NCBI RefSeq assembly: GCF_053078305.1 | Contig: NZ_CP166879.1 | Length of the DNA: 64,000 nucleotides | Direction: 5' to 3' (one strand) | Part shown: positions 23,876 through 64,000 of the stretch, one piece after another | Layout: each line of letters begins with the position of its first letter | Position numbering within the stretch: position 1 is the first letter of the stretch | The notes under the pieces: model-generated | Told to the model about the DNA's origin: nothing | The model's input: only the letters and a program-made list of their open reading frames with translations | Databases searched by the model: none | Made by a program: the position numbers and the translations under genes

Positions 23876-23951
23876 GCCCGGATAGCTCAGTCGGTAGAGC
23901 AGGGGATTGAAAATCCCCGTGTCGGTGGTTCGATTCCGCCTCCGGGCACCA
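23876..23951 (+). tRNA. pheU: tRNA-Phe (anticodon GAA), pheU-type locus
   Basis: 76 nt: GCCCGGA acceptor stem pairing with TCCGGGC, D-arm AGCTCAGTCGGTAGAGC, anticodon loop ATTGAAAAT (GAA), T-loop TTCGATT, 3' CCA; followed directly by an integrase gene. Confidence 0.95.
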
Positions 23952-24146
23952 TATACCAGAACACGCTGGTTAAGGGATGAGATCCTTGACGGGCGGTTAA
24001 TACAGGATGCGGCATCAAAGGGTCTCCGTTTGTGTAAGTTGTGGTTACACTGATTGAGTTCGGTATCGTATCCTCAAACAGGGTCTCTTTTGCAGAGACG
24101 CCCTGTTCTCGTTAACACTGTATGCTTACATTGCTGATTCAGCCTG

Positions 24147-25184: not shown

Positions 25185-25251
25185 TATATATTCCCCTTGT
25201 TTACTGTGCTCCCGCACTCTCCGGTCAAATTCTGCACATCATCGCCTTTAC

Positions 25252-28216: not shown

Positions 28217-28447
28217 GTATTCTCTTCTCCGGAAAAACATTTCCGTAATCTGATGCATCAGGGGTATGCCCACCACAAATAACTCTGTACAGCAACAGAA
28301 AAATTTCCCTGGTCATATGATGAATTAATCATCGCCATCACACCGGATGCTTCTCATCCTGTCCTCAGAAAGACAGGTGGTCTCCTGTCTGCCGCGCTTA
28401 TCCAGGATACCGGGACCTGAAAGGTCATAATCTGGCAGGAAAAAATA

Positions 28448-34250: not shown

Positions 34251-34751
34251 TTAACAAACCTCGTCATTCTGATAAACAGAAGCATTCTCCTCATGATGTA
34301 ATTCACCACAGACAGCCCCTTTCCTGTTTAATTTTGCCTGATAGTGTAAATCTGGATATAACTTCACAATATATCGAAGAAACACGGAGTAAGATATATG
34401 ACTGAATAACGCCTCATGCACATTTTTCAGCAAACAACCGGAATTAACCATGAGAGCCATCTCAGAATGTTGTTTCTGCATAAATACAGCAACAGTACTG
34501 CGATTAAAAAGAGCATTTTCATGTAACTCACTTGCATCACGTCTCAGTGAAAATACAAAACCATTCTGTGAAAACGTCAGTTCCGGGTGTTTTTCCTTCA
34601 GTAATCTGTAAATATCTGGCAGTCTCATTCCATCCTTAATCCAGAGTGCAATGGCGTCACGCTCCTGGTTGATTAAGTTTTTTATCTTATTTTTTTCTGG
34701 TATAATCTTACCTTTCATATTATCTCCCTCAGGAACAACAAAGAAGTTCAC
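34251..34751 (-). CDS. Hypothetical protein (AT-rich region upstream of the Type III R-M locus)
   Basis: 166-aa ORF; alternative start MKGKIIPEK; no recognisable motif. Confidence 0.3.
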   Translation of the reverse strand: MNFFVVPEGDNMKGKIIPEKNKIKNLINQERDAIALWIKDGMRLPDIYRLLKEKHPELTFSQNGFVFSLRRDASELHENALFNRSTVAVFMQKQHSEMALMVNSGCLLKNVHEALFSHISYSVFLRYIVKLYPDLHYQAKLNRKGAVCGELHHEENASVYQNDEVC

Positions 34752-34893: not shown

Positions 34894-35118
34894 ATGACAC
34901 GCAACGCAACGCAACGCAACGCAACGCAACGCAACGCAACGCAACGCAACGCAACGCAACGCAACGCAACGCAACGCAACGCAACGCAACGCAACGCAAC
35001 GCAACAATATGCTCGCCTGAACTCTCTCCGTCAAGTACCTCTACCTCCGTGCTTTCTGGAGGTACTGTATGAATATACGCAACAATCATCTACCGGGAAC
35101 AGAAACTCTTTTTTCTGA
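34894..35118 (+). CDS. Candidate leader ORF containing the pentanucleotide tract and overlapping the mod start
   Basis: ATG 34894 preceded by GAGG (34885-34888); reads MT(RNATQ)x7 through the repeat and ends at 35118, 50 nt beyond the mod ATG; coding status unproven. Confidence 0.35.
   Translation: MTRNATQRNATQRNATQRNATQRNATQRNATQRNATQQYARLNSLRQVPLPPCFLEVLYEYTQQSSTGNRNSFF
34899..35005 (+). repeat. Perfect pentanucleotide simple-sequence repeat (GCAAC)21
   Basis: 21 uninterrupted GCAAC units at 34901-35005 (tract with partial unit starts 34899), ending 63 bp upstream of the mod ATG. Confidence 0.97.
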
Positions 35119-37105
35119 AACTGAAACTGCGAACAGTAAACAACTTGCTGTTTTGAAAACTAACTTTCCACAGTGTTTCGATAAAAACGGAGCTTTCATT
35201 CAGGAAAAGCTGCTTGAGATCATCAGAGCATCAAATGTTGAAATCTCTAAAGAGTCATACTGCTTAAACTGGCTTGGCAAATCCTATGCTCGCCTGCTGG
35301 CTAACCTACCACCAACGACATTGCTGTCAGAAGATAAAGACCATAACCGACGTGAAGAGAACAAGAACAGTCAAAATCTGTTAATCAAAGGGGATAACCT
35401 TGAGGTATTAAAGCATATGGTTAATGCTTATTCTGAAAAGGTTAAAATGATTTATATCGATCCGCCATATAACACGGGTTCTGATGGGTTCGCCTATAAT
35501 GATGATCGCAAATTTACACCAGAACAGCTTTCTGATCTGGCGGGTATCGATCTTGATGAGGCTAAACGTATACTTGAATTTACCACGAATGGTTCAAGCA
35601 GCCATAGCGCATGGTTAACGTTCATTTATCCTCGTTTATATATTGCTCGTGAGCTTCTACGTGAAGATGGTGTGATATTTATTTCGATTGACGAAAATGA
35701 ATTAAATCAACTTAAAACTATTTGTGATGAAATTTTTGGCGAAGCAAATTTCATAGAAAATATTGTATGGAATAAACGTATCCCTAAAAATGATAAGGGT
35801 ATTGGTAATATCCATGAGTACATCCTTGCTTATGCGAAGAATAACGAAATAAGTAAAGAATTTTTAATGCGGAAAGATGGTATTGATGATGTATATCAGT
35901 TTATTGAAAAGTTAAAAAAGGAAAAGGTGCCATTAGATAAAGCAGAGCAGCAACTCAAAAAATTCTACAGCTCCAACGGATATGATCGTGGAATTACTCT
36001 TTACAACGGTTTGAACGAGGATTATAGGCCATGGGGTAAAATTAATATGAGTTGGCCTAATGCAGATTCATTTGGACCCACGTATGAAGTATTGCACCCT
36101 TTGACTAATAACCCTGTCAAAATCCCAGACAGAGGCTGGCGTTGGAAAGAAGGCACTTTTAATCATATTGCAAAAAGAATAGATGGAAAGTATGCAGATA
36201 TCAAAAAACTACATGATGGTAGCGTTATTTGTGGTGGAATTTGGTTTGCCCGTACAGAAAAAACCCAACCCAGTTCGGTTAAATTTTTAGATGAAGTTGA
36301 AGAGTTTTTACTAAGATCAATTATTTCAACTAAAAGTGATGGTGGTGTTGAGGTTGAAAATCTTTTTGGTGGGAAAGGATATTTCTCCTACCCGAAGCCA
36401 ACAAGTTTAATAAAAACACTATTTGGTTCAGTAAGAACCGAAGATAAAGACATTTATCTTGACTTTTTTGCTGGCTCTGGAACTACAGCTCATGGTATTC
36501 TGGAGTTAAATATTGAAGACGGCAGGAAAAGAAACTTCATCTGTGTTCAATTAGATGAAGAAACAGATAAAAAGAAACAAGCCTATAAAGAAGGGTATAA
36601 ATCCATCTTCAATATAACAAAAGACAGAATTATTAAGGCAGGAAAAAAGCTGAAAAAAGATAATCCTAATTATAATGGAGATTTGGGATTTAAAATATTT
36701 GAAACAGTTCATGATTTTCGAGCGAAAGATGAGTCTGAACTTACGCTTTCTAATCTTAGTTTCTTTGACGATGCTGTATTGACACCAGAGCAGTATGACA
36801 CTCTATTGACGACATGGTGCGTGTATGATGGCAGCTTGCTAACAACACCAATTGAAGATATTGACCTTAATGGCTACAAAGCACACTTGTGCGATGGTCG
36901 GCTATATCTAATTGCGCCTAATTTCACAAGTGAGGCTTTGAAAGCTTTACTTCAAAAGCTGGATGCAGACAAAGACTTTGCCCCTAACAAAGTTGTATTT
37001 TATGGCAGCAACTTCGAAAGTGCGAAACAGATGGAACTCAATGAAGCACTAAAAAGTTATGCTAATAAAAAATCTATTGATTTAGATTTGGTGGTAAGGA
37101 ACTAA
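35069..37105 (+). CDS. mod: Type III restriction-modification methyltransferase Mod (N6-adenine)
   Basis: 678 aa; GGAGG Shine-Dalgarno at 35058-35062; motif IV IYIDPPYNTG, motif I FFAGSGTTAHG; followed 2 bp later by res. Confidence 0.9.
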   Translation: MNIRNNHLPGTETLFSETETANSKQLAVLKTNFPQCFDKNGAFIQEKLLEIIRASNVEISKESYCLNWLGKSYARLLANLPPTTLLSEDKDHNRREENKNSQNLLIKGDNLEVLKHMVNAYSEKVKMIYIDPPYNTGSDGFAYNDDRKFTPEQLSDLAGIDLDEAKRILEFTTNGSSSHSAWLTFIYPRLYIARELLREDGVIFISIDENELNQLKTICDEIFGEANFIENIVWNKRIPKNDKGIGNIHEYILAYAKNNEISKEFLMRKDGIDDVYQFIEKLKKEKVPLDKAEQQLKKFYSSNGYDRGITLYNGLNEDYRPWGKINMSWPNADSFGPTYEVLHPLTNNPVKIPDRGWRWKEGTFNHIAKRIDGKYADIKKLHDGSVICGGIWFARTEKTQPSSVKFLDEVEEFLLRSIISTKSDGGVEVENLFGGKGYFSYPKPTSLIKTLFGSVRTEDKDIYLDFFAGSGTTAHGILELNIEDGRKRNFICVQLDEETDKKKQAYKEGYKSIFNITKDRIIKAGKKLKKDNPNYNGDLGFKIFETVHDFRAKDESELTLSNLSFFDDAVLTPEQYDTLLTTWCVYDGSLLTTPIEDIDLNGYKAHLCDGRLYLIAPNFTSEALKALLQKLDADKDFAPNKVVFYGSNFESAKQMELNEALKSYANKKSIDLDLVVRN

Positions 37106-37107
37106 TC

Positions 37108-40020
37108 ATGTCTAAAGGGTTCACATTCGAAAAAAATTTACCTCATCAAAAGGCTGGCGTTGATTCGGTAATGAATGTCTTTGTATCCGCCATACCTCAT
37201 CAGACGGATCATGTTGCAATTCGCCTGTTAGCTAATCCAGAACTGAATCTATCTGAACAACAATACTACAACAACATAAAAAATGTTCAGGAGTTCAATG
37301 GTATTGAGCACTCAAAAGATAATTACGATGCTAAAAGCAACGTAATTGATGTTTCTATGGAGACAGGTACAGGTAAAACTTATACTTACACCAAAACAAT
37401 TTTTGACCTGAACAAATCATTTGGTATTAACAAATTTATCATCATTGTTCCTACCCTATCGATCAAAGCCGGAACCGTTAACTTTTTAAAAAGCGATGCT
37501 ATAAAAGAACACTTTCGAGATGATTACGAGCGTGAACTAAAGACTTACGTTGTTGAAAGTCAGAAAAGTTCGGGTAAAAATACAAAATCGTATATGCCTC
37601 AAGCTATCCATGATTTTGTTGAAGCAAGTAATTTCAATAAGAAATATATACACATTCTTGTGATCAACTCAGGGATGATTAACTCTAAGTCTTTAACTGA
37701 CACTTATGATGTTGGCTTGCTTGATAATCAGTTTGATACCCCATTTTCTGCACTTAGTGCGATAAAACCATTCATTATCATTGATGAGCCTCATAAATTT
37801 CCTACTGGTAAAAAGACATGGGAACATATTCAAAAATTTAATGCCCAATATATCATCCGCTATGGCGCAACCTTTAGTGAAGGCTATAAGAACTTAGTTT
37901 ATCGTCTTACAGCCGTAGATGCCTTCAATGAAGATCTTGTTAAAGGTATTGATGCATACATTGAGGATATAGTTGGTGATGGTAATGCCAACCTCAAGTT
38001 GGTCAAATCTGACGGAAAAGAAGCTACATTTGAACTGAACGAAAATAATAATAAAAAAATTTTTAAGTTAGCCAAAGGTGAATCACTATCTAAGACGCAT
38101 AGTGCGATCCATGATTTAACTCTTGATGCTTTAAATAAGAATACAGCAGTGTTGAGTAATGGTATTGAGCTAAAAATTGGTAGTTCGATAAACCCCTATT
38201 CTTACGATCAGACACTTGCTGATAACATGATGCGTAAAGCTGTCAAAGAACACTTTAAGTTAGAAAAAGAGTATCTGACACAAAGGCCACGCATAAAACC
38301 TCTTACTCTTTTCTTCATTGATGACATTGAAGGCTATCGTGATGGTAATGATATTGCAGGAAGCCTGAAAACTAAGTTCGAAGAATACGTTTTGGCAGAA
38401 GCAAATGAACTGTTAAAAACAGAGAAAGATGAGTTTTACAGAAACTACCTTGAAAAAACTGTTAAGGATATATCTTCTGTTCATGGTGGTTATTTTTCAA
38501 AAGATAATAGTGATAAAGATGATAAAATTGAGCAGGAAATCAACGAAATCCTTCATGATAAAGAGCTTCTATTGTCTTTAGAAAATCCTCGCCGTTTCAT
38601 TTTCTCTAAATGGACGTTGCGTGAGGGATGGGATAACCCAAATGTCTTTCAGATTTGTAAGCTCCGTTCGAGCGGTAGCACCACATCTAAACTTCAGGAG
38701 GTAGGGCGTGGTTTACGTCTTCCAGTGAATGAATACATGTGCCGTGTGAAAAACCGCGATTTTACTCTCAACTATTATGTTGATTTTACGGAAAAAGATT
38801 TTGTTGATTCTCTTGTAAAAGAGGTTAATGATAGTTCTTTCAAAGAAACTGTTCCAGGTAAGTTTACTCAAGAACTTAAGGATAAAATCTTATCTCAGTA
38901 TCCTGAGCTTTCATCCAGAACACTCATGAATGAGATCTTTGATGCTGAAATTATTGATGATAATGAAAACTTCAAAGATTCCGATGCCTATAGCCGTTTA
39001 AAAGCAAAATATCCGGCTGCATTCCCTACCGGGGTGAAACCAACAAAAATAAAAAAAGCCACGGATGGAAAAAAGCGTACTAAAATGCGTATTGGTAAGT
39101 TCAGTGAGTTGAAAGAACTATGGGATTTGATCAATCAAAAAGTAGTAATTGAGTATAAAATAAATAGTGAAAATGAATTCTTATCCATTTTCAAATCATT
39201 CATGATTGAAGAAACAGATAGATTTACTAAATCAGGTGTTCATACTCGCATTGATAGAATTTATATTCATAATGATACGGCGATGTCGAAAAGTATCGTC
39301 AGTGACGATGATAACTTTGCTAAACTAAACACAATGAGCTATCGGGAATTTCTTGATAACTTATCACAAACTATTTTTGCTAAACACGATACCTTACATA
39401 AGGTTTTTTGTGATATAAAAGACACTATCAATATCACCGACTACCTGAACATTCAGACAATCAGAAAGATTAAATCTGGGTTTAGCAAGTATTTGTTGAA
39501 CAATTCATTTAACAAATTCAGCCTTGGATATAATGTAATTTCAGGCTCAATTCATCCTACAAAATTCACTAATGCAGACGGTAATCACCTGCATGAGGTA
39601 TTATCAGGTGATCTTGGAGTATTACAGGATAATACAAAAGCCCCCCTAGACTCTTATCTTTTTGAAGAAGTTTTTTATGATTCAGAGCTTGAAAGACTCA
39701 ATATAACAGACGGAGAGATCCACTCTGTTGCTGTTTTTACAAAGATACCGAAAAACTCAATTAAAATTCCAGTGGCAGGTGGATACACATATTCTCCTGA
39801 CTTTGCTTATGTTGTAAAAACAACAAAGGGTGACTACCTTAACTTTATTATTGAAACAAAAAATGTCGAAGGTAAAGAAAGTTTACGTAAAGAAGAACTG
39901 GATAAAATAAAGCATGCACAAAAACTTTTCGAACAGGTAAGTAAATCTGTAAAAGTAACTTTTATAACTCAATTCTCAGGTGACAGAATCCATGATCTGA
40001 TAAAAAATGTGATTCAGTAA
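37108..40020 (+). CDS. res: Type III restriction enzyme Res subunit (SF2 helicase-like ATPase/nuclease)
   Basis: 970 aa; Walker A TGTGKTYT, DEAH-like IIIDEPHKF; tightly coupled to mod. Confidence 0.9.
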   Translation: MSKGFTFEKNLPHQKAGVDSVMNVFVSAIPHQTDHVAIRLLANPELNLSEQQYYNNIKNVQEFNGIEHSKDNYDAKSNVIDVSMETGTGKTYTYTKTIFDLNKSFGINKFIIIVPTLSIKAGTVNFLKSDAIKEHFRDDYERELKTYVVESQKSSGKNTKSYMPQAIHDFVEASNFNKKYIHILVINSGMINSKSLTDTYDVGLLDNQFDTPFSALSAIKPFIIIDEPHKFPTGKKTWEHIQKFNAQYIIRYGATFSEGYKNLVYRLTAVDAFNEDLVKGIDAYIEDIVGDGNANLKLVKSDGKEATFELNENNNKKIFKLAKGESLSKTHSAIHDLTLDALNKNTAVLSNGIELKIGSSINPYSYDQTLADNMMRKAVKEHFKLEKEYLTQRPRIKPLTLFFIDDIEGYRDGNDIAGSLKTKFEEYVLAEANELLKTEKDEFYRNYLEKTVKDISSVHGGYFSKDNSDKDDKIEQEINEILHDKELLLSLENPRRFIFSKWTLREGWDNPNVFQICKLRSSGSTTSKLQEVGRGLRLPVNEYMCRVKNRDFTLNYYVDFTEKDFVDSLVKEVNDSSFKETVPGKFTQELKDKILSQYPELSSRTLMNEIFDAEIIDDNENFKDSDAYSRLKAKYPAAFPTGVKPTKIKKATDGKKRTKMRIGKFSELKELWDLINQKVVIEYKINSENEFLSIFKSFMIEETDRFTKSGVHTRIDRIYIHNDTAMSKSIVSDDDNFAKLNTMSYREFLDNLSQTIFAKHDTLHKVFCDIKDTINITDYLNIQTIRKIKSGFSKYLLNNSFNKFSLGYNVISGSIHPTKFTNADGNHLHEVLSGDLGVLQDNTKAPLDSYLFEEVFYDSELERLNITDGEIHSVAVFTKIPKNSIKIPVAGGYTYSPDFAYVVKTTKGDYLNFIIETKNVEGKESLRKEELDKIKHAQKLFEQVSKSVKVTFITQFSGDRIHDLIKNVIQ

Positions 40021-52070: not shown

Positions 52071-52643
52071 TTATCTGACCCGGCCTTCAGCCACATCCTT
52101 CACACGTTTAACTAATGGCTCAATAAATTTATCTTTCAGATGCCCCGGTGCCGGAGATGCATACGTTATATATATCCGACTTCCTTTGCCATTTTTTTCA
52201 AGTTCAAGCGTCAGATGATCATCAAACTCGCCACCATCCCAGTCACTGCCCATTTTATAATAACTACCGGGCATGGCATCCCACATATGCCCGTTCTGAC
52301 TTATTGCTGCTGCGGCCCACTTCCCGTTCGCATGTCCGTTATTACGAATCGCATCGACTTCTTCATTTGAATAAAACTTATAGTACCGTTTCAGTCTTCC
52401 CGCAGCTGTATCCACATCAACAGGGACTTCTATGACATGATCACGTTTCTCTCTTTTTGCCCGGGGTGCCTGAGACAGATATTTGAGATCATCATCTGCC
52501 TGGTTTACACCTACGTTCAGTACTTTTGTCACAGCAAATGCACCGTCACTTATCTGCCTGTTCAGCTCTGCAATTTCCTGTGCAGAACAGGCACTCAGCG
52601 CAACACACGAAGCACAAACGAGTAACATTTTTTTAGTCAGCAT
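52071..52643 (-). CDS. Putative lipoprotein of unknown function
   Basis: 190 aa; signal peptide with lipobox ALSAC. Confidence 0.55.
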   Translation of the reverse strand: MLTKKMLLVCASCVALSACSAQEIAELNRQISDGAFAVTKVLNVGVNQADDDLKYLSQAPRAKREKRDHVIEVPVDVDTAAGRLKRYYKFYSNEEVDAIRNNGHANGKWAAAAISQNGHMWDAMPGSYYKMGSDWDGGEFDDHLTLELEKNGKGSRIYITYASPAPGHLKDKFIEPLVKRVKDVAEGRVR

Positions 52644-53601
52644 GTCTTCATCCTCATCAGCAGCTCTTCAGTGGATAACATCCACAGTTACACCTGCATT
52701 TACGCGCAACAAAAACACCAGATGAAGATTTTATTCATTCAGCTCCGCTAAAAATTAATCTTGCTGTGGAATATCGGGAAAACAGGAAGTTACGTTAAAA
52801 GCCGAAGGAAAAACTCACAATCCCTTCTTCAATCAGCCTCTGAAAATCGGCTTTTCAGCATGTCTTCCCCCATTGTTCGTATACCCTGTTCGATGGATTA
52901 TTATTGATCCATATGATCGCTTCACGTAAACACGATTCTGGCTCCACACCATTCTGGACGCGATTGTTACCAAAAAAGACAACCATCACAAGACGTCACA
53001 GACGGTGCGTGCGCTTACTCCTGTATATCTGGCGCAACAGAATCTACCAGTGTAAACTCTCTATGCTTTTGCGCAGAAGCAGTGGGCCTGGGTTCGCTTA
53101 TGTCCTGCATCTACAAGCGAATGACTGACCAGAGACTCCCATATCTGGTCAGTCGCCCATTTTTATTTTCCCTATACACTCAGACTACAATAGCCGTAAC
53201 AAACAGCATACCCCCAGTCATAGTGGCCCCTTTATCTTCTTATGGCTTGTCTGTGGTACTGGAGATAGAGCAACTGTGGGAGTACTGTTATGGCCCCCGG
53301 TAAGAAAAACTCTTGCTTAATGTACAGCAGAACTGTTCCCAGAAAGAAGCCTGTGCATATTTTCATAGAAGGAGATCACCCATAACGGCGTTTTTCACGG
53401 TAATACACGCCAGGTAAAGAATGCTGGATTATCAATCAAAGCTCCGCACAGGAAGCGCTTATGCCGTAGAGCGCCCTCTGGAGAAAAGTGCTACTTCTTG
53501 TCGATTCAGACTAGTTCAGGAAATTATACGAAAATATTACCTGAATGAGCTAAATGTTATTTACCTTCCTTTCTGTTCATTGTAAATTTTTTCTTGCTAA
53601 C

Positions 53602-53620
53602 GCAAATCATTATCATTACG
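53602..53620. promoter_or_regulatory. Candidate Fur box upstream of the TonB-dependent receptor gene
   Basis: GCAAATCATTATCATTACG: three NAT(A/T)AT-like hexamers (AATCAT TATCAT TACGAT) matching the Fur consensus GATAATGATAATCATTATC core, 21 bp upstream of the start. Confidence 0.5.
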
Positions 53621-53640
53621 ATTTTAGAAAAGGGAAATTT

Positions 53641-55689
53641 ATGAAGAACAAATATATCATTGCTCCGGGCATTGCCGTGATATGTTCTGCAGTCATATCA
53701 TCAGGTTATGCCAGTTCTGATAAAAAAGAAGATACGCTTGTTGTTACTGCCTCCGGCTTCACTCAGCAACTCAGAAATGCACCGGCCAGTGTTTCAGTCA
53801 TTACTTCAGAGCAACTGCAAAAAAAACCGGTTTCAGACCTGGTCGATGCGGTAAAAGATGTTGAAGGGATTAGTATCACCGGTGGGAATGAAAAACCGGA
53901 TATCAGTATACGTGGGTTAAGTGGCGATTATACATTGATTCTGGTCGATGGACGACGTCAGAGTGGTCGGGAATCCAGACCAAACGGCAGCGGCGGTTTT
54001 GAAGCCGGATTTATCCCTCCTGTGGAAGCAATTGAGCGTATTGAAGTTATACGTGGCCCTATGTCTTCCCTGTATGGTTCCGATGCTATCGGAGGAGTTA
54101 TTAATATCATAACCAAACCTGTTAATAACCAGACATGGGATGGCGTACTTGGGCTTGGGGGAATTATTCAGGAACATGGGAAATTTGGTAACTCAACCAC
54201 GAATGACTTCTACCTGTCAGGCCCATTGGTTAAGGATAAACTTGGTCTTCAGTTATATGGAGGAATGAACTATCGCAAGGAAGATAGTATCTCTCAGGGA
54301 ACACCAGCAAAAGATAATAAGAATATAACGGCAACACTCCAGTTTACTCCGACTGAAAGCCAGAAGTTTGTTTTTGAATACGGAAAAAATAACCAGGAAC
54401 ATACATTAACACCTGGTGATTCTCTTGATGCCTGGACTATGCGGGGAAATCTTAAACAACCAAACAGTAAAAGAGAAACACATAACTCACGTAGTCACTG
54501 GGTAGCAGCATGGAATGCCCAGGGCGAAATACTGCATCCTGAAATTGCTGTTTATCAGGAGAAAGTTATTCGTGAGGTTAAATCTGGTAAAAAAGATAAA
54601 TATAATCATTGGGATCTTAATTACGAGTCAAGAAAACCGGAAATAACCAACACGATCATAGATGCAAAAGTGACGGCATTTCTGCCGGAAAATGTGCTGA
54701 CCATCGGAGGTCAATTTCAGCATGCAGAACTCCGTGATGACTCAGCCACAGGTAAAAAAACGACAGAAACACAGTCTGTTTCAGTTAAACAGAAAGCTGT
54801 TTTTATAGAAAATGAATATGCTGCAACGGATTCTCTCGCCCTGACTGGAGGGCTGCGCCTCGATAACCATGAAATCTATGGCAGTTACTGGAATCCAAGA
54901 TTGTATGCTGTTTATAACCTGACCGATAATCTCACTCTCAAAGGAGGGATCGCAAAAGCATTTCGGGCCCCTTCGATTCGTGAGGTCAGTCCTGGATTTG
55001 GAACACTGACGCAGGGTGGTGCCTCTATTATGTATGGAAACAGGGACCTGAAACCGGAGACCAGTGTAACCGAAGAGATCGGTATTATTTATAATAATGA
55101 CAGTGGTTTTTCAGCAAGCGCGACTCTGTTTAATACAGATTTTAAAAATAAGCTGACCAGTTACGATATAGGCACAAAAGATCCAGTCACTGGGCTAAAC
55201 ACTTTTATTTATGATAATGTGGGTGAGGCAAATATCAGAGGTGTGGAGCTTGCAACTCAGATTCCTGTGTATGATAAATGGCGTGTATCTGCAAACTATA
55301 CATTCACTGACTCCCGTCGAGAAAGCGATGACGAAAGTCTCAATGGCAAGTCGCTGAAAGGGGAACCTCTGGAAAGAACTCCCAGACATGCAGCCAATGC
55401 AAAACTGGAATGGGATTACACTCAGGATATTACATTTTATTCATCTCTGAATTATACAGGAAAACAAATCTGGGCAGCACAAAGAAATGGTGCCAAGGTT
55501 CCCCGTGTTCGTAATGGATTCACTTCTATGGATATTGGTATGAATTACCAGTTCCTGCCAGGCACGCTGATTAATTTTGCCGTACTTAACGTCACAGACA
55601 GAAAGAGCGAAGATATCGATACCATTGATGGTAACTGGCAGGTCGATGAAGGACGTCGTTACTGGGCTAATGTAAGAATATCCTTCTGA
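53641..55689 (+). CDS. TonB-dependent outer-membrane siderophore receptor (IrgA/Iha/CirA-like)
   Basis: Start MKNKYIIAPGIAVICSA (ATG 53641, AAGGGAAA upstream); TonB box DTLVVTAS; plug motifs IRGPMSSLYGSDAIGGVINIIT; C-terminal aromatic residue (RYWANVRISF). Confidence 0.9.
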   Translation: MKNKYIIAPGIAVICSAVISSGYASSDKKEDTLVVTASGFTQQLRNAPASVSVITSEQLQKKPVSDLVDAVKDVEGISITGGNEKPDISIRGLSGDYTLILVDGRRQSGRESRPNGSGGFEAGFIPPVEAIERIEVIRGPMSSLYGSDAIGGVINIITKPVNNQTWDGVLGLGGIIQEHGKFGNSTTNDFYLSGPLVKDKLGLQLYGGMNYRKEDSISQGTPAKDNKNITATLQFTPTESQKFVFEYGKNNQEHTLTPGDSLDAWTMRGNLKQPNSKRETHNSRSHWVAAWNAQGEILHPEIAVYQEKVIREVKSGKKDKYNHWDLNYESRKPEITNTIIDAKVTAFLPENVLTIGGQFQHAELRDDSATGKKTTETQSVSVKQKAVFIENEYAATDSLALTGGLRLDNHEIYGSYWNPRLYAVYNLTDNLTLKGGIAKAFRAPSIREVSPGFGTLTQGGASIMYGNRDLKPETSVTEEIGIIYNNDSGFSASATLFNTDFKNKLTSYDIGTKDPVTGLNTFIYDNVGEANIRGVELATQIPVYDKWRVSANYTFTDSRRESDDESLNGKSLKGEPLERTPRHAANAKLEWDYTQDITFYSSLNYTGKQIWAAQRNGAKVPRVRNGFTSMDIGMNYQFLPGTLINFAVLNVTDRKSEDIDTIDGNWQVDEGRRYWANVRISF

Positions 55690-55702
55690 GAGAATATAGA
55701 TA

Positions 55703-55725
55703 ACCTGAGGCCGTGCGCCTCAGGT
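55703..55725 (+). terminator. Weak hairpin after the receptor gene (no clear U tract)
   Basis: ACCTGAGGC-cgtgc-GCCTCAGGT. Confidence 0.3.
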
Positions 55726-56362
55726 ACCAGTATAGTAATCAGTAACGTCAGCTTCCAGGTTGTAATGCTTTTAATTTTGATAAAAATAAACTTAATAAAT
55801 TACATTTGTTAAATATTGATAATTTTAATTTGGTTTTATTACTCCAGTTATACTCACACTCTATCTTTACACAATTCATCACCATTACACCTCCATAGCC
55901 TGTTGATTTAAAAGATTTAATTTCCTGTGAAACAATCAGGCCTGTATGAACCTGATTATACCACAGAATCTTTTAAGTTATTTAAATTTAACTCTCGGGC
56001 TTTTCTGTCAGTAAAATCAGAAAAATTGCAGGATTTCGTTTTTTTTGCTGCGAAGTGAAATGTATCTCATTTTTACTGCCTTCGCCAGTGCGTCAGGCAA
56101 TGGCAGGTAGTGTACCTGCATTCTGCTGTAACGCGTAATGTCGGGTAGTTTACTTAAACTTAATATGTTTTATGTTTGCATTATTATAAATCACTTTATT
56201 GCCTTTTGTCTGCTTTTTAATGGTTCCCGTTTTGTTCACTTCTGGCTTTATAAAAAATGGATGCTGAAGAAATGAAGGTAGTCCACCTTACATAATATTC
56301 ATGCATGATTTTTATGCTATTCCGACTGAGTGGAAGAAAATAAAGGAGAAAAGAGGGTATAT

Positions 56363-59300
56363 ATGAACCTCAGAAAAAAACATATCTGTATAGCCATATC
56401 ACTTGTTCTTAATCCGGCATCCATATCACAGGTCAGTGCTCAGGCAGATACAAATAAGTTAACTGTTGAAGTTGATGAAACCAGCCTTGGCCATGATGTC
56501 TATGGCGATGACTGGAAGAGCATTGAAATAGGTACAACGAAATTTACAGCAAAAGATGAATCAAAGGGAATTAATTTCGACCATAAATCACCGGTGGCTG
56601 AAGGACGTAACTCTATCGCGATTGGTACCAGTGCAGAGGCTGGAGGTGACATTAGCACGAAGGAAGGTTTGTACACAGGCGAGTCTATTGCGATAGGAGC
56701 GAAAACGAAAGCAACTAAAGAACAGTCAATTGCAATAGGTGGCGATACCAAAGCTACCGGATGGGGGGCTATTGTTATTGGTGGGGATGATTTAACTCCT
56801 TTGCATGGTAAGACTTATGGTCGGGAAAAAATAGAGAATGGCTATCTTGCATCGGAAGCGCAGGGGGATGGCAGTATTGCGCTGGGCAGCAGAACTTTTG
56901 CTAAAGGCGAATTGTCAGTATCGCTTGGTTCGGTGAGTTCTGCTGAGGGGATGGCCTCGAATGCAATTGGAGCCACGGCGGAAGCTAAAGGGGATATGGC
57001 GACTGCGGTTGGTTTTAATGCGCTGGCTAATGCCGGTAATGCTCTGGCCGTTGGTAGTCAGTCCTCTGCAAATAAAAACGATGCTCTTGCTGTTGGTTCA
57101 GAGGCAAATGCCGCTCAGAATGAAACGGTTGCCCTGGGGCATGGAGCAACCGTTACTGTCGCAAAGGGGAACGTGTCCATCGGCGCTGACTCCAGGGATA
57201 AGCAGGCACAAAAAGTAACAGAGGCTAAGGTCAGAACTAAAAGAGGCGCGGAAGTCACATATAGTGGCTTTGCCGGAAATAACGCAGCATCAGTAGTATC
57301 TGTTGGTGATGCGGGTAAAGAGCGTCAGATTGTTAACGTGGGGGCGGGTGCGATTTCTGACACAAGTACAGATGCCATTAACGGTAGTCAGTTATATGCG
57401 ATAGCGAAGACACTGAAAGATGACCTTGATGCCATTAATCCGACGTGGACGCTAAAGGATGATAAGGGAGGTTCTGCGACTATTAATGGTGGGAAGGATA
57501 ATAAGAATGGTAACACTTTAACTGTTAAAGGTGATGGAGATATTGCAGTTACTGTTAATGATAAAGGAATGACGATTGACGGAACAACGCTGAAAAATGA
57601 AATAAAAAATGATGCCATCAAAATTAAAGGTGGAGATGGTAAGACGCTGACGAAGAGTCTTGGTGACAATGTCGAAATCACTGGCAAAGGCCCAATAAAA
57701 ACCCAGGTGGCTGGAGATAAACTGGAGATTTCAGCAGAGACAGCTTCGTTGCCTGTAAATGGTGGTAACGGGAAGATTACAGTAAACAATGGTGATGGCG
57801 ATAAACTTGTTACTGCGAAAAACATTGCTGATGCCATAAACCAGTCTGGCTGGAAAATTAAAGCGGATAAAGATACCGGTGGTGTTATCGAGGGAAATGG
57901 TCAGGGAACAGAAACACTGATAAAACCCGGTGATATGGTTACGCTGAAAGCCGGTAAAAATCTCAGCGTGAAACAAAGTGGTGGTGATTTTACATTCTCT
58001 GTTATTGATACTCCGTCATTCAGCAGTGTTCAGCTGAATGGAAAAGGAAATAACGGAAGTGTAACGCTCTCATCCGAAGGTAATAAGCTGACATTGTCAG
58101 GCGGTAATGGTGCCGGACAAAATGGTGTTGTTATCAGTGGTGTGGCAAGTGGACTGGAAGGTAAGGAACTTTCGACGTTAACGAATACTGATAAAGAGAT
58201 GAAAAATGCCGCCAGTGTTGCAGACCTGAAAACGGCAATTGATGGTGTGTCCTCCAGTATGCAGGGTGCAGGTTTCGCACTGAAAGACTCTGATGATAAG
58301 GAAGTGAAACAGTCTCTTGGGCAGGCGATTAAAGTATCCGGGGACAGCAATATCACCACCACAGCCATCACCAATGGGGATAAGGGGTTAAAAATATCCC
58401 TGAATAATGACCTGAGCGTTGGGAGCAATAATACTCCCGGCAGCATCAAAGTTAACGGGGCTGATGGTAAGGAGGCTGTGAGTCTGAATGGTCAGGATGG
58501 CACGATTAAACTGACATCCTCGCCTGCTGCGGGTGGAAAGTCTGCGTCAGCAACCATTGCTGTTAATGCAGGCAAAGGTGGATTAACAGATGCTGCCGGT
58601 ACCACGAAGACACGTCTGACTTATACCCCGGATGGAAAATCACCGGCAGAAGAGCTGGCGACCATGAATGACGGTCTTTCTTTTGAGGGTGATGACGGAA
58701 AGGTTATTCATAAAAAACTGAATGAAAAACTGACCATCAAAGGTGGTGCAGAGAAGAATGCTGAAGTGACTGACGGCAATATCCGGGTTGATAATGATAA
58801 TGGCGGGCTTCTGGTGAGGATGACCAGAAACCTCCGTGATTTGGCCAGCGCGGTTTTTGGTACAGGTGGGCAGATAACAACAGTTAATGATAAAGGCATC
58901 ACAATCACAACACCTGCTGCGGGCGGTGGTCAGGGGAATACGGTTTCCCTTACCGGCTCCGGCCTGAATAACGGTGGAAATCAGATAACCAGTGTGGCCA
59001 GTGGTCTGAACGGCACTGCGCTTGCTGACGCCGGTGGAGATGTTCTGAATAATGCGGCCAATATCGGTGACCTGAAAAATGCTCTCCGTGACAGCAGTGC
59101 GGCACTGGTGAATACCGGCTTTGGTCTGCAGGCGGATGACGGAAGCAAGGTGAACACGTCTCTCGGGAAGCATATCACGGTTGGTGGTGACGGGCAGAAT
59201 ATCAGCACGACTGTTCAGAACGGGAGCCTGACGGTCAGACTCGCTGATAACATTCGCCTGGGAGATGACGGCAGTGTTTCTGTCGGCGGAACCCGGATGG

Positions 59301-60694
59301 ATAAAAACGGACTGACCATCAAGGATGGCCCGTCAGTGACTGTGAACGGTATTGATGCGGCTGGCCGGGTTATTTCCGGCGTGAAAGACGGGGTGAATGA
59401 CCAGGACGCCGTTAACGTTTCACAACTGAACCGTGAAATCAGTCAGGCAACGGCAGCAACGACCTGGGCACTGAAGACTGAATCCGGTGATGAGGCTGTT
59501 GCTGTTTCCTCCCAGACGGTTGAAGTCCGTCACGGACAGAATACCCGGGTTTCAGCCATCAGTAAGGATGATAAGGGAAATTACAGCTATGAGATTGATG
59601 TGACGGGGATTCCGGTGGAGTACACCGACAGCCAGGGGAACCCGCTTGTCAATATTGGTGGTCGTTTTTACACACAGACCGAAGATGCTGCGACCGGGAA
59701 ACTGACAATGACGCCGGCTGAGCCGGCCCGTGTCAGAATAAGCAGTGAGCAGCCTCTTGTTCTGACAAATGTGGCGGCCGGAAATGTGTCACCGGTATCC
59801 ACGGATGCGGTTAACGGGAGCCAGCTGGCATCTGCAGCCAGAATTGCTGGCGGTGATAATGTTGTCTGGAAAGACGGAAAAGCAGCGCTGGCTCCTGACA
59901 CCTTCAGTGAGCTGACAACTGCAGGTGGCGGTAAGACAACGGTGAATGGTGGTGTACATAAAACACCGGATAATGTGGCTGATGCAGTGAATATGCTGAA
60001 CCGTGAAGGCACGAAGTATTTTAAAGCTGCCTCTTCCGGTCAGGCAGCAAAAGCGGAAGGGCGTGACAGTATTGCTGTCGGACAGGGGGCCGTTTCCCGG
60101 GGACAAAACAGCATTGCCATGGGTAATGGTGCTGAAGTCACGCGTCAGGCTGCTGCCGGCTCTGTTGCAGTTGGCAGCCATGCCCGTGCTGGCCGCGCGA
60201 ATACCGGGACTTATGCCCTGAACGGTCAGGCTGTTGCGGGACGTACCGGAAGTGATACTGCGGTGGTTTCTTTTGGTCAGCCGGGACAGGAGCGTCAGCT
60301 GCAGTCAGTGGCACCGGGTGTGTTGTCTGCGAATTCAACGGATGCCGTCAATGGCAGTCAGTTGCATGCAACTAACCGTCAGGTTGCCGGAAATACACAG
60401 GCGATAAACACCCTCGGGAATAAATTCAGTCAGCTGAGCTACCGGGTGGAAGAGCTTAACCGGGATATCCGTGGTGTTGGTGCATCGGCTGCGGCCATGA
60501 GCGGGATACCTCAGGCCTATCTGCCGGGTAAAAGTCTGATGGGGCTGGGTGTCGGTGGATATGGTGGTGAAAGCGCCATTGCAATAGGGGTGTCCCGAAT
60601 CTCCGATAACGGTAAGATGATAATGAAACTGAATGCAGGTCAGAACACCCGGGGTAATTTCTCCGTCGGTGCCGGTGTGGGCTGGCAGTGGTAA
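56363..60694 (+). CDS. Large trimeric autotransporter adhesin (UpaG/EhaG-like)
   Basis: Start MNLRKKHICIAISLVLNPASISQVSAQA (ATG 56363); many head/neck repeats (SIAIGTSAEA, AVGFNALANAGNALAVGSQSSA, NAIGATAEA); C-terminal YadA anchor ending GAGVGWQW. Confidence 0.85.
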   Translation: MNLRKKHICIAISLVLNPASISQVSAQADTNKLTVEVDETSLGHDVYGDDWKSIEIGTTKFTAKDESKGINFDHKSPVAEGRNSIAIGTSAEAGGDISTKEGLYTGESIAIGAKTKATKEQSIAIGGDTKATGWGAIVIGGDDLTPLHGKTYGREKIENGYLASEAQGDGSIALGSRTFAKGELSVSLGSVSSAEGMASNAIGATAEAKGDMATAVGFNALANAGNALAVGSQSSANKNDALAVGSEANAAQNETVALGHGATVTVAKGNVSIGADSRDKQAQKVTEAKVRTKRGAEVTYSGFAGNNAASVVSVGDAGKERQIVNVGAGAISDTSTDAINGSQLYAIAKTLKDDLDAINPTWTLKDDKGGSATINGGKDNKNGNTLTVKGDGDIAVTVNDKGMTIDGTTLKNEIKNDAIKIKGGDGKTLTKSLGDNVEITGKGPIKTQVAGDKLEISAETASLPVNGGNGKITVNNGDGDKLVTAKNIADAINQSGWKIKADKDTGGVIEGNGQGTETLIKPGDMVTLKAGKNLSVKQSGGDFTFSVIDTPSFSSVQLNGKGNNGSVTLSSEGNKLTLSGGNGAGQNGVVISGVASGLEGKELSTLTNTDKEMKNAASVADLKTAIDGVSSSMQGAGFALKDSDDKEVKQSLGQAIKVSGDSNITTTAITNGDKGLKISLNNDLSVGSNNTPGSIKVNGADGKEAVSLNGQDGTIKLTSSPAAGGKSASATIAVNAGKGGLTDAAGTTKTRLTYTPDGKSPAEELATMNDGLSFEGDDGKVIHKKLNEKLTIKGGAEKNAEVTDGNIRVDNDNGGLLVRMTRNLRDLASAVFGTGGQITTVNDKGITITTPAAGGGQGNTVSLTGSGLNNGGNQITSVASGLNGTALADAGGDVLNNAANIGDLKNALRDSSAALVNTGFGLQADDGSKVNTSLGKHITVGGDGQNISTTVQNGSLTVRLADNIRLGDDGSVSVGGTRMDKNGLTIKDGPSVTVNGIDAAGRVISGVKDGVNDQDAVNVSQLNREISQATAATTWALKTESGDEAVAVSSQTVEVRHGQNTRVSAISKDDKGNYSYEIDVTGIPVEYTDSQGNPLVNIGGRFYTQTEDAATGKLTMTPAEPARVRISSEQPLVLTNVAAGNVSPVSTDAVNGSQLASAARIAGGDNVVWKDGKAALAPDTFSELTTAGGGKTTVNGGVHKTPDNVADAVNMLNREGTKYFKAASSGQAAKAEGRDSIAVGQGAVSRGQNSIAMGNGAEVTRQAAAGSVAVGSHARAGRANTGTYALNGQAVAGRTGSDTAVVSFGQPGQERQLQSVAPGVLSANSTDAVNGSQLHATNRQVAGNTQAINTLGNKFSQLSYRVEELNRDIRGVGASAAAMSGIPQAYLPGKSLMGLGVGGYGGESAIAIGVSRISDNGKMIMKLNAGQNTRGNFSVGAGVGWQW

Positions 60695-60718: not shown

Positions 60719-61498
60719 ATGTTATTTAGTCGAATGATGATGACGGGTGTGCTGTCCCTGATGCTTGCAGGATGTGGAAATCTGAGTCATGTCACGGATG
60801 AAGGAACGACGGAAGAAGTGGTATGGCCTTCTCCGGAGAAGGTGATGTTTAATCATGACGGAACACAGAAAGGTTCGTGGCCACTGCCAGAAAAGTTACG
60901 TCAGATAAAGGCGGGTATGAATAAGGACCAGATTTATCAGCTGGCGGGGAGACCACACTTTGCTGAAGGGATGTCTGGTGTAAGGGAATGGGATTACCTG
61001 TTCAACTTTACCGGACCGGAGGGGGATTATACCTGCCAGTACAAGATACTGTTTGACCGGAACATGGATGCCCGCTCTTTCTACTGGAAGCCGGAAAACT
61101 GTCTGCCGGAGGCAGAGACAGCAGAATACAGGGAGTCAGTCCCCGGTGATATATTATTTGATTTTGATTCATGGACTCTGACAGAGAGGGGGCGTGATGC
61201 GCTTTCCCGTGTGGCAGAGAAGTTTCAGGCGGGTCATGTTGTCGGGGTGAAGATAGAAGGATTTACGGACCATCTTGGCGGGCAGGCGTATAACCGGCTC
61301 CTGTCAGAGAAACGGGCGGAATCAGTCAGGGGGTGGTTTATTGCCCGGGGATTCAGGGCTGAAAGGATACATGCAACGGGCCGTGGATATGATGCACCAG
61401 TGGTGTTCTGCCCGGATGTGGAGGGCGAAGCACTGAAGGAATGTCTGCGCCCCAACCGCAGGGTTGAAATAACCGGGGAAACATCAGTGACTGATTAA
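60719..61498 (+). CDS. OmpA-C-domain lipoprotein (peptidoglycan-binding), co-oriented 24 bp downstream of the adhesin
   Basis: Lipobox LMLAGC; C-terminal OmpA-like domain (ILFDFDSWTL, FTDHLGGQAYNRLLSEKRAESV, RPNRRVEI). Confidence 0.8.
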   Translation: MLFSRMMMTGVLSLMLAGCGNLSHVTDEGTTEEVVWPSPEKVMFNHDGTQKGSWPLPEKLRQIKAGMNKDQIYQLAGRPHFAEGMSGVREWDYLFNFTGPEGDYTCQYKILFDRNMDARSFYWKPENCLPEAETAEYRESVPGDILFDFDSWTLTERGRDALSRVAEKFQAGHVVGVKIEGFTDHLGGQAYNRLLSEKRAESVRGWFIARGFRAERIHATGRGYDAPVVFCPDVEGEALKECLRPNRRVEITGETSVTD

Positions 61499-61612: not shown

Positions 61613-62134
61613 TCAGAAGTGACCGTCCAGGCGGTCACCGAACTCGATAATAAAGCGGCTCATTGCCATTCGCCGGTTTTGCCATTCTACAACCTGCTCC
61701 ATCACGGCATCGGTGACCTTTGATATCAGTGCCGGTGAAACATCTGCGTCATACAGCTCTTTGAACGCAGCAGCGATCTCACGGGTGGTCATCCCTTTGG
61801 CATACAACGAGAAGATCTGGTTATCCATCCCAGTAATACGGGTCTGATTTTTCTTTACCAGTTGTGGTTCGAAGGTACCGTCACGATCGCGCGGAGTACG
61901 CAGTTCCAGTGGACCGTCGCCTGTGATAACGGTCTTTGTGGAATAACCGTTGCGGGAGTTAGTTCCCGGTTTGGACTGATTTTTCTCATACCCAAGATGG
62001 TGTGTCATCTCTGCATTGAGAGCGGCTTCAACGCTGATCTTTTTCAGTAGACGGTCAAACTGGCTGAGGTCTTCAGGGGTTTTGAGGTTTTTGGCCAGTT
62101 CGTTAGCCAGAGCCTGTAACTGTTTTTCGTCCAT
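61613..62134 (-). pseudogene. Truncated IS256-family (mutator-type) transposase, N-terminal fragment only
   Basis: 173 aa matching an IS256-family N-terminus (NGYSTKTVITGDGPLELRTPRDRDGTFEPQLVKKNQTRI, YAKGMTTREI) then terminating; the catalytic DDE region is absent. Confidence 0.7.
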
Positions 62135-62182
62135 AAATTAACCTTCATTTGATGCTTGATTGAACATATCAAAATCAGGCAA

Positions 62183-63560
62183 TTACACAAATCTATGTAC
62201 AGGCTCTTTCCAAGGCCTCTCCTTTACCACTCTCGGGAAGCCCCTTTCCCTTCTTGTCGGTAATTTCACAAGTTGTCCCATACTTGCAAGATCGCGCATC
62301 AGCCCCGGTATACGTCCCGGTGAAGCGCCCTGCAATGTCATCACCATTCCGCATGATTCTGAGAAACTCAGTTGATTCGGCCAGTAACCTTTCAGATGTT
62401 CCGCCATTTTAATCATCTGACATCTTACCAGATTATAAGCCAGTAAGACACCCCACAGCTCTTGCTCCACAAGCTCCGGCTTTTTACAGCGTCAGCCTGC
62501 TCAGTTGCATCGTCTGTTTTATCTCCCTGTATCCCAGTTCAATTTCCCGGCGATGACTGTACAGATCCGCCATTTCTCCCCCGGGGAAGCGCATGGCGTC
62601 CGTCATCGACGTCAGCAGATGGCAGACTTCTCCTTTGCGCGTCACGGTCAGCAGGCGGGCTGTCACCTCATTTCCCAGTCCCGGCCACTTTTTTCGTGCC
62701 TGCGGGCTGGTTTTCAGCTTCACCAGATGATCGCCTTTACCCAGTTTTCTGATCTCTTCATATTGCGCTCCCTTTCTGAGAGGGATCATCCAGTGGCGGT
62801 GTTCTCCCACCAGGCTCCAGGCATTTAACAGTCCCAGTGAGTAATAACCTTTATCCATTAACGTCAGGGTGTTATCGCCGGTTTGTTCTATAAGTTGCTC
62901 AGCAAGCTCATTTTCGCTGTTCTTCATCGTGCCGAAGGCTCAGCCGTAAGCAGATGGCTGGTCAGTTCCATCTGGCAGACTATTTTGACCTGCGGGTAGA
63001 GCGCCGGGTTGCCGGCATGTATCTGGCGGGGGAAGGCTGCATCGTTCTCTGGTGTATCCGGTGTGCGCCAGAACATACCATCGATGGCCAGCAGGGTCAG
63101 GCCGCATCAGTGCGGATGCGGCGTGGCGTTATGCCAGAGCTGCGCTGTTTTCGTGAACACGCGGCGGACAGCCTCACTTCCCAGGTGCTGGCGGGCCTGA
63201 ATAACGGCACTGGGGGCAACGAAGGGGCGATTGCCGGCAGCATGATGTCCAGGCGATTCACAATCTGGTGAAGGGGCTCTTTACGCTCAAGCGCCATGCC
63301 AACAATACACCAGACCATCATTTCGAGGGGAAGACGGCGCTTGCGTAGCGTTACCGTACCTGATTCGGCAAGGCAACGAGAGATGAGTTCGGGGTCGAGG
63401 TAATCCCCCAGAGAAGCCAGTGGGTTACGCAGAGAATCGTAACGGGATACCAGATCAAGGGCCTGTCCAGTGTGCATAAAAAATCCGGAAACGAGTGAGC
63501 GTTTCCGGATTCTTACACAACCACTGGATCGGTCAACTGATCCTTAACCGATCGGCATTA
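62183..63560 (-). mobile_element. IS4 insertion sequence copy with a disrupted transposase
   Basis: Transposase split across 63097..63477 (MHTGQALDLVSRYDSLRNPL), 62484..62927 (DKGYYSLGLLNAW) and 62183..62470; IS4-type terminal sequence CCTTAACCGATCGGCATTA at 63542-63560; the other end not identified. Confidence 0.75.
63478..63510 (-). terminator. Terminator-like hairpin inside the IS4 end, upstream of its transposase start
   Basis: ATCCGGAAACG-agtgag-CGTTTCCGGAT with an A run on the plus strand (T run on minus). Confidence 0.45.
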
Positions 63561-63590: not shown

Positions 63591-64000
63591 TTAGACGTTG
63601 ACGCCGTGCTGGGAAGCAAGCGCTGACAGGCCACCGGAAAAACCCTGACCGACAGCTTTAAACTTCCACTCAGCGCCATGGCGATACAGTTCACCGAAGA
63701 CCATTGCGGTTTCAGTTGAGGCGTCTTCAGACAGATCGAAACGGGCAATTTCCGCGCCGTTATCGTTGTTGTAAACGCGCATGAAGCTGTTGCTCACCAT
63801 GCCGAAATTTTGTTTACGCGCTTCTGCATCATAGATGGTAACGGCAAATACCAGTTTTTTGACGTCAACTGAGACTTTTGCCAGATCGATTTTAATTTGC
63901 TCATCGTCACCATCGCCTTCACCGGTACGGTTGTCACCCTGGTGCTCTACTGCGCCATCAGGGCTGGTTTTATTATTGAAGAAAATGAAATGGGCATCTG
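63591..64000 (-). CDS. TerD-family tellurium-resistance/stress protein, 3' portion; 5' end beyond window
   Basis: Frame open to the window edge; C-terminus [83 protein letters not shown] is characteristic of TerD/TerE/TerZ. Confidence 0.8.

Follow-up and report, generated by a model that had tools for sequence, protein, structure and literature searches.

A composite Fur operator very probably represses, in an iron-dependent manner, the ireA gene carried on a genomic island in the window, by which we mean the whole stretch of 64,000 nucleotides that was analysed. Among extraintestinal pathogenic E. coli, ireA is recognised as a virulence-associated gene for an iron-regulated receptor, and the receptor is also a vaccine antigen. 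The IreA of these strains was reportedly described by Russo et al. in 2001 (Infect Immun 69:6209). Fur control of ireA is already known, since published work on the uropathogenic strain CFT073 shows that Fur binds the identical 19-mer and that ireA is derepressed when fur is mutated, and the iron-repressed, Fur-dependent expression proposed in the initial annotation therefore holds as a mechanism (PMC7157518). By analogy with CFT073, we infer the same Fur binding and repression in the strain from which the window comes. Beyond correct annotation, that is, the change of name from iha to ireA and the exact coordinates of the operator, the importance of this result is small. Our analysis adds that the operator is part of a mobile ireA cassette of 2.3 kb, and that the IreA family of the Morganellaceae and their relatives has conserved Fur control.

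Judged by its sequence, the gene is ireA, coding for an island-borne TonB-dependent outer-membrane receptor from the CirA/IrgA branch of catecholate receptors. The window protein scores 1513.8 bits against the NCBIfam IreA equivalog profile (cut-off 1197), with residues 1-682 matching profile positions 1-682 of 682, and it is identical to the IreA of CFT073 at 670 of 682 residues (98%) without gaps. All other receptor profiles remained below their own cut-offs for this protein, including the CirA equivalog profile (399 vs a cut-off of 745) and PRK13486, a receptor profile of 696 positions (377 vs 924). The close DNA matches of the gene are all annotated as ireA, and in the DNA search this annotation was found in 445 of 5426 complete E. 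coli genomes (about 8%), in both chromosomal and plasmid copies. The longest open reading frame over the gene starts at position 53554 and ends at 55689, the end given in the initial annotation. The ATG at 53641 is the biologically supported start, given the AAGGG located 6 nt upstream and the 682-residue product, which matches the IreA profile over all of its 682 positions.

The initial annotation had named the receptor "IrgA/Iha-like", which is correct for the receptor branch and incorrect if read as iha. A rival reading would go further and make the gene the iha of an island resembling the tellurite-resistance and adherence island of O157:H7. Iha, the siderophore receptor and adhesin of O157:H7 and uropathogenic E. 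coli, shares the receptor superfamily branch of IreA, as the BLASTP match between the two (E 3e-110) reflects; it is likewise Fur-regulated, island-borne and a reported adhesin, in CFT073 Fur also targets Iha directly (PMC7157518), and a TerD-family gene lies downstream of the receptor in the window. However, the window protein shares only 34% identity, with 12% gaps, with an annotated Iha, a protein of 695 residues as against 682 for IreA, and this falls short of the high full-length identity expected of an Iha orthologue. No Iha-type profile scores above its cut-off, PRK13486 included, while the IreA profile is passed; moreover, the close DNA matches point to ireA and the island sits at tRNA-Phe. 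With the IreA equivalog passed, and with 98% identity to the IreA of CFT073 set against 34% to Iha, we consider the iha identity refuted and its remaining probability negligible. The link to adhesion that had been drawn through Iha survives in part, as a role in adhesion has been described for IreA too (PMC4988017), although the identity with Iha on which it was based does not.

The protein has the features of a TonB-dependent receptor, namely a Plug and a barrel domain (Table 1), a TonB box close to the N-terminus of the mature protein and, at the C-terminus, an aromatic residue, the chain ending in ...RISF with a terminal phenylalanine. Read from the translation, the signal peptide would end at about ...GYA (residue 24), N-terminal of the TonB box. 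This box, DTLVVTA, resembles those of FepA and CirA. CirA (2hdf) is the nearest solved structure to the window protein (E 5e-103), and the CirA of E. coli K-12 shares with IreA the plan of a Plug and a 22-strand barrel at about 35% identity. CirA is a classical Fur-repressed gene and belongs to the core genome, whereas ireA is accessory. The suggested placement of IreA among the catecholate receptors reflects kinship to CirA at the level of sequence and fold only. IreA itself has been described as less well characterised (PMC7157518).

Table 1. Coordinates of the features discussed, as positions in the window
Feature	Position	Strand	Basis or remark
tRNA-Phe, island attachment site	23876..23951	+	ARAGORN; core genes to left
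ireA cassette, about 95% identity to ireA loci in CFT073 and plasmids, otherwise unrelated contexts	53514..55832	+	BLAST edges
Promoter zone, three weak sigma-70 candidates (8/12 each)	53560..53622	+	own enumeration
27-bp invariant block TTGCTAACGCAAATCATTATCATTACG, probably the complete Fur operator (four hexamers)	53594..53620	.	allele alignment
Primary Fur box GCTAACGCAAATCATTATC, 15/19 to consensus	53596..53614	+	PWM 14.1 bits
Second, overlapping Fur-box register GCAAATCATTATCATTACG, 14/19, 6 bp downstream	53602..53620	-	14.9 bits, best minus-strand PWM score
String of the initial annotation AATCATTATCATTACGAT	53605..53622	+	overlaps operator; one base out of classical phase
Shine-Dalgarno-like AAGGG, 6 nt 5' of ATG	53630..53634	+	sequence; kept in all aligned E. 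coli alleles
ireA coding sequence, 682 aa, intact	53641..55689	+	NCBIfam NF010011 IreA equivalog
TonB box DTLVVTA (aa 31-37)	53731..53751	+	translation, judged by eye against known TonB boxes
Plug domain (aa 44-153)	53770..54099	+	Pfam PF07715, E 9.8e-29
TonB-dependent receptor beta-barrel (aa 208-651)	54262..55593	+	Pfam PF00593, E 3.1e-54
GC-rich 9-bp hairpin, 14 nt after stop codon	55703..55725	+	-21.5 kcal/mol, z = -4.4
TerD-family tellurium-resistance gene, 3' part (136 codons), runs off window	63591..64000	-	99.8% identical to JNEC-KY171

A sequence resembling a Fur box had been noticed in front of the receptor start, and this string, AATCATTATCATTACGAT, does occur once in the window, 19-36 bp upstream of the ATG. 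Its division into the hexamers AATCAT TATCAT TACGAT located a Fur site but not its frame: the phase is one base off, the hexamer TACGAT is not conserved, and the operator extends 9 bp further upstream than this string. In the consensus phase the operator reads GCTAAC GCAAAT C ATTATC ATTACG, with hexamers that score 4/6, 4/6, 6/6 and 4/6. When both strands were scanned, GCTAACGCAAATCATTATC was the single best match in the 64 kb to the 19-bp consensus GATAATGATAATCATTATC, and it is overlapped by the second register on the opposite strand. The best consensus and PWM matches fall 21-45 bp upstream of the ireA ATG. A 19-bp Fur box match in the promoter region, one of the marks of a direct Fur target, is present at ireA in two registers.

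How much weight this match can bear depends on where it is looked for. As the initial annotation had suggested, the site was scored with a Fur position weight matrix, which we built from the 12 other distinct Fur motifs under CFT073 ChIP-seq peaks with ireA left out (Table S5B, PMC7157518), and which is partly circular, since the original authors had chosen these training sites through consensus matching. The two top scores of the window, 14.9 and 14.1 bits, are both at the ireA operator. The training sites, each scored with itself left out, range from 11.1 to 24.7 bits, which places the ireA site at the low end, as a weak-to-middling one, and 36% of Markov-simulated random 64-kb sequences (128,000 positions) reach its score. 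The operator also matches 11 of 14 positions of the 7-1-7 Fur model, and this is not distinctive, as 12 such matches occur in the window. Because the PWM score is not significant window-wide, we used position-restricted tests instead. For a single such site in a 100-bp promoter stretch, P is 0.0015-0.003, and for two sites 6 bp apart in a stretch of that length P is at most 5e-5.

It could be argued that the Fur-like sequence arose by chance in AT-rich promoter DNA, that it has no regulatory role in this strain, and that any iron regulation is indirect; a G+C content of 29% in the 150 bp upstream, the lack of window-wide significance and the dozen matches to the 7-1-7 model would all agree with this. 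However, composition-matched shuffles of these same 150 bp reach the observed score in only 0.2% of cases, a strong Fur ChIP-seq peak of CFT073 covers the identical 19-mer and has its summit within the motif, the block is invariant amid variable flanks, and orthologous promoters retain a box despite changed sequence. We consider a chance origin very improbable on this evidence. The score alone is middling; it is position, overlap and conservation that, as features of the sequence, make the Fur site convincing.

Evidence of binding comes from the work of Banerjee et al. (mBio 2020), who combined Fur ChIP-seq in CFT073 with RNA-seq and proteomics, and counted ireA among the direct Fur targets located in pathogenicity islands (PMC7157518). 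Their Fur peak of c5174 (ireA) has its summit at 4,935,947 and a height of 1485, and the motif listed under it is GCTAACGCAAATCATTATC, at positions 157-175 of NC_004431.1:4935789-4936098, which correspond to 4,935,945-4,935,963 (Table S5B, PMC7157518). Our own scan of the CFT073 ireA locus placed GCTAACGCAAATCATTATC at the same coordinates, with the peak summit inside the motif, and this ChIP-bound 19-mer is letter for letter the primary box of the window. In the fur mutant of CFT073, ireA RNA and protein increase strongly, with table entries of about 39 for RNA and about 185 for protein (PMC7157518). Two studies in APEC together describe iron-responsive expression of ireA, which was 6.5-fold higher under iron depletion (PMC6979363), an interaction of TonB with IreA seen by pull-down (PMC6979363) and an adhesion phenotype (PMC4988017). 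Similarly, the ireA homologue of Proteus mirabilis is up-regulated on iron limitation (PMC11026637).

The comparison of alleles indicates which part of the upstream DNA has been kept. We aligned the window allele with those of CFT073, of the nearly identical genome JNEC-KY171 and of two plasmids, with four E. coli alleles sampled. In these alleles the 27-bp block with both Fur-box registers is invariant, and the bases directly on both sides vary. Specifically, the CFT073 class reads TACGCC where the initial annotation had its third hexamer, so that the last two bases of AATCATTATCATTACGAT are not conserved; relative to CFT073, the window shows a change of GCC to GAT at 53620-53622 as well as a 1-bp deletion and further changes at 53587-53593. 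The CFT073 gene (c5174) has the 682 residues and the 27-bp operator block found in the window, while differing in the bases that flank the operator and sharing about 95% DNA identity over the cassette. The allele class of the window is the minority one, with 20 records at 99% identity or more vs 319 in the 90-95% class (5' part). Continuous homology between ireA contexts runs from 53514 to about 55750-55832 amid unrelated neighbours, and the unit that moves is thus a cassette of 2.3 kb in which 127 bp of upstream DNA accompany ireA. A search for an exact 23-mer of the operator gave no match in 100,044 species-representative genomes, and this exact sequence seems confined to the E. coli cassette.

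In the sigma-70 consensus scan, no match of 9/12 or better overlapped the operator, and occlusion is therefore assumed rather than shown. Our own enumeration gave three weaker candidates. The first, TTTACC-17-TAAATT (53560/53583), is kept in both allele classes and would put the operator at about +1 to +25; the second, TTTTCT-16-TATCAT (53589/53611), would put it over the spacer and the -10; and the third, TTGCTA-17-TACGAT (53594/53617), lies wholly inside the operator, with its -10 destroyed in the CFT073 class (TACGCC). Fur bound at the 27-bp block would, from this layout, interfere with initiation from any of the three. In the mechanism we propose, the short private promoter region that begins at about 53514 carries the composite operator, and under iron sufficiency Fe2+-Fur dimers would occupy the overlapping 19-bp boxes, where they would either block RNA polymerase at the overlapped promoter or sit just 3' of the start site. 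When iron becomes scarce, Fur would be released and ireA would be transcribed. The exact geometry of repression in this scheme is inferred.

The third candidate raises the question of whether the two allele classes behave alike. The operator could be functional in both, and the flank substitutions that create TTGCTA-17-TACGAT could nevertheless alter the level of expression or the tightness of repression relative to CFT073. This promoter scores 8/12 in the window, the CFT073 class lacks the final T of its -10, and the window belongs to the minority class; on the other hand, there are two other 8/12 candidates, one of them kept in both classes, and the differences may be neutral. Such an allele effect seems to us highly unlikely. 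The related idea, that the operator-embedded promoter of the minority allele, if it is used at all, could change either derepressed strength or the tightness of iron control, is a speculative one to which the sequence gives a small chance. If it were true, it would provide a small natural example of the co-evolution of promoter and operator in a mobile virulence cassette, and the effect of the flank substitutions on promoter use in the minority allele may be the only loose end here with any novelty. For the locus as a whole, repression by Fur from the conserved block is the reading we retain.

We also looked at the promoters of IreA orthologues, which we retrieved from species-representative genomes with a degenerate pattern for the IreA-specific peptide RESRPNGSGG. 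This gave 39 loci, nearly all of them in Proteus, Providencia and Morganella, with others in Budvicia, Leminorella, a Citrobacter and Advenella, and the proteins are 45-68% identical to IreA. The promoter test covered the 34 of these 39 loci for which the start codon and 80 bp or more of upstream DNA were available. When the top Fur-PWM score in the 150 bp preceding the ATG was compared with shuffled sequence, no more than 1% of shuffles reached it in 28 of these 34 promoters, and in 21 promoters the score was 14 bits or higher. Many of the 28 come from closely related species, which makes the number of independent events smaller than these counts suggest. Six of the 34 promoters have no convincing Fur box. 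None of the 150-bp coding controls reaches 14 bits, their maximum being 12.3.

The boxes differ from lineage to lineage, GATAATATTAATCATTCTC being found in Proteus, GATAATGATAATCATAATG in Providencia, GCAAATGAAAATTATTATC in Morganella and GGTAATGATAATTATTAGC in Citrobacter sp. Since the sequence of the box changes and yet the box persists, the site has been kept by function, not merely inherited unchanged. The Morganellaceae orthologues, such as the ireA of Proteus mirabilis, are 56-68% identical to the window IreA over the full length, and their Fur boxes lie 19-110 nt before the ATG and have sequences unlike that of the window. The presence of a Fur box in the Morganellaceae and their relatives supports Fur control as an ancestral trait of the IreA family rather than a gain made in E. 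coli. In addition, because an orthologue was retrieved from most Morganellaceae species representatives, ireA appears to be resident there, in contrast with its presence in about 8% of complete E. coli genomes.

The surroundings of the gene fit the acquired, island-borne receptor of siderophore type that the initial annotation had expected, in that a TonB-dependent receptor lies on an island at tRNA-Phe. Core chromosome occupies positions 1-23875, from frd by way of groL and aspA to dsbD. To the right of the tRNA gene come a tyrosine recombinase, a relaxase of the PFGI-1 class of ICEs and a helicase, and further right a short trimeric autotransporter and a type III restriction-modification system precede ireA. 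Beyond ireA there are a YadA-like adhesin of 1454 residues, a TpgA-like protein of the OmpA family, fragments of IS256 and IS4 and, 8 kb downstream of the receptor, the TerD-family gene, whose counterpart in JNEC-KY171 carries the TerD-family annotation and stands at the head of a full ter cluster. In CFT073, too, the island with ireA is located at a phenylalanine tRNA gene, pheU (PMC7545054), but the neighbours of ireA there are pap genes and IS elements, whereas those in the window are the YadA-like adhesin, the TpgA-like protein and ter genes. Among the complete E. coli genomes of the collection, none spans at least 80% of positions 40000-64000 in one piece, which makes this mosaic an uncommon one.

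The co-location with ter genes mentioned in the initial annotation is therefore real as far as the partial TerD-family gene goes: a neighbourhood of ter and receptor genes exists, with ireA in the place of iha. The association of iha with ter in the islands of O157:H7 concerns a different gene, as the receptor is ireA. Instead of the iha and ter operon that define the tellurite-resistance and adherence island of the O157:H7 type, the window has ireA, a tRNA-Phe site and ICE-type genes.

Finally, we considered the transcript and the DNA that follows it. An Rfam scan of 52600-56400 returned two sub-threshold chance matches, both to eukaryotic families, and the region thus holds no known leader RNA. 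Separate Fur control of the downstream adhesin gene was considered and dropped: the 676-bp AT-rich spacer before that gene (55690-56365) has no Fur-like site beyond chance, its best one being equalled by 80% of shuffles. Shortly after the ireA stop codon lies a GC-rich hairpin, which was flagged on the minus strand in the scan and has no U tract on the plus strand; from its position and predicted stability, it probably ends or stabilises the ireA transcript.

The mobile unit of ireA, which encodes a TonB-dependent outer-membrane receptor, is a 2.3-kb cassette (53514-55832) with sharp homology edges. Immediately upstream, 310 bp in the window (53204-53513) correspond to an unrelated 158 bp in E. 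coli CFT073, where the cassette adjoins pap genes and IS elements. On plasmids, it is flanked by IS66, IS21 and IS2 elements. IreA-type receptors (45-68% identical) occur in most species representatives of Proteus, Providencia and Morganella, while ireA is found in only ~8% of complete E. coli genomes, and the G+C content of the E. coli cassette is 43%, versus 51% in the adjoining core. Together, these data suggest that E. coli acquired ireA from a Morganellaceae-like or related donor. No donor more than 70% identical to E. coli IreA was found among the IreA-type loci retrieved from species-representative genomes (L008-L045).

Downstream of the receptor, the island carries the gene for a large YadA-like trimeric autotransporter adhesin, followed after 24 bp by one for an OmpA-family protein. 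The top match of the latter is TpgA (119 bits, under the 350 cut-off), a peptidoglycan-anchoring protein that partners a trimeric autotransporter adhesin. The two genes look like an adhesin-plus-anchor pair, linked here with the minority ireA allele. A second, shorter trimeric autotransporter gene of the YadA type lies on the same island (see table below).

No complete E. coli genome of the collection holds 40000-64000 at 80% or more in one place; the best coverage is 73% in Z1323MEC0001 and 64% in JNEC-KY171. Among finished genomes, these island modules are seldom found in this combination.

Island features in the window
Feature	Coordinates	Strand	Remark
Tyrosine recombinase	24147-25217	-
PFGI-1-class ICE relaxase	25252-26739	-
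UvrD-like helicase	26726-28276	-
YadA-type trimeric autotransporter	28448-30124		558 aa
Type III restriction-modification pair	35069-40020
YadA-like trimeric autotransporter adhesin	56366-60694		1454 aa
OmpA-family protein	60719-61498
IS256 (truncated) and IS4 (degraded) transposase genes	61613-63477		between adhesin module and TerD-family gene
TerD-family gene	63591-64000	-	partial; continues past the window's right end

The mobility-type genes of the island adjoin tRNA-Phe, within 23952-28276. Since a tyrosine recombinase, a relaxase of the PFGI-1 ICE class and a UvrD-like helicase are found together at this tRNA gene, the island appears to be left over from an integrative conjugative or mobilisable element. 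In the restriction-modification pair, the type III endonuclease scores 1073 bits against a cut-off of 564, and the 678-aa methyltransferase-like protein encoded upstream of it has weak matches only. Towards the right end, the IS256 copy lacks ~690 bp relative to JNEC-KY171.

The third-ranked window match to the Fur matrix, which was built from 12 other ChIP-supported CFT073 sites, is GATAAACAGAAGCATTCTC (34271-34289, 14.0 bits). Its position is the 3' end of a 166-aa ORF that carries no annotation (34251-34751, minus strand), and the match is probably due to chance.
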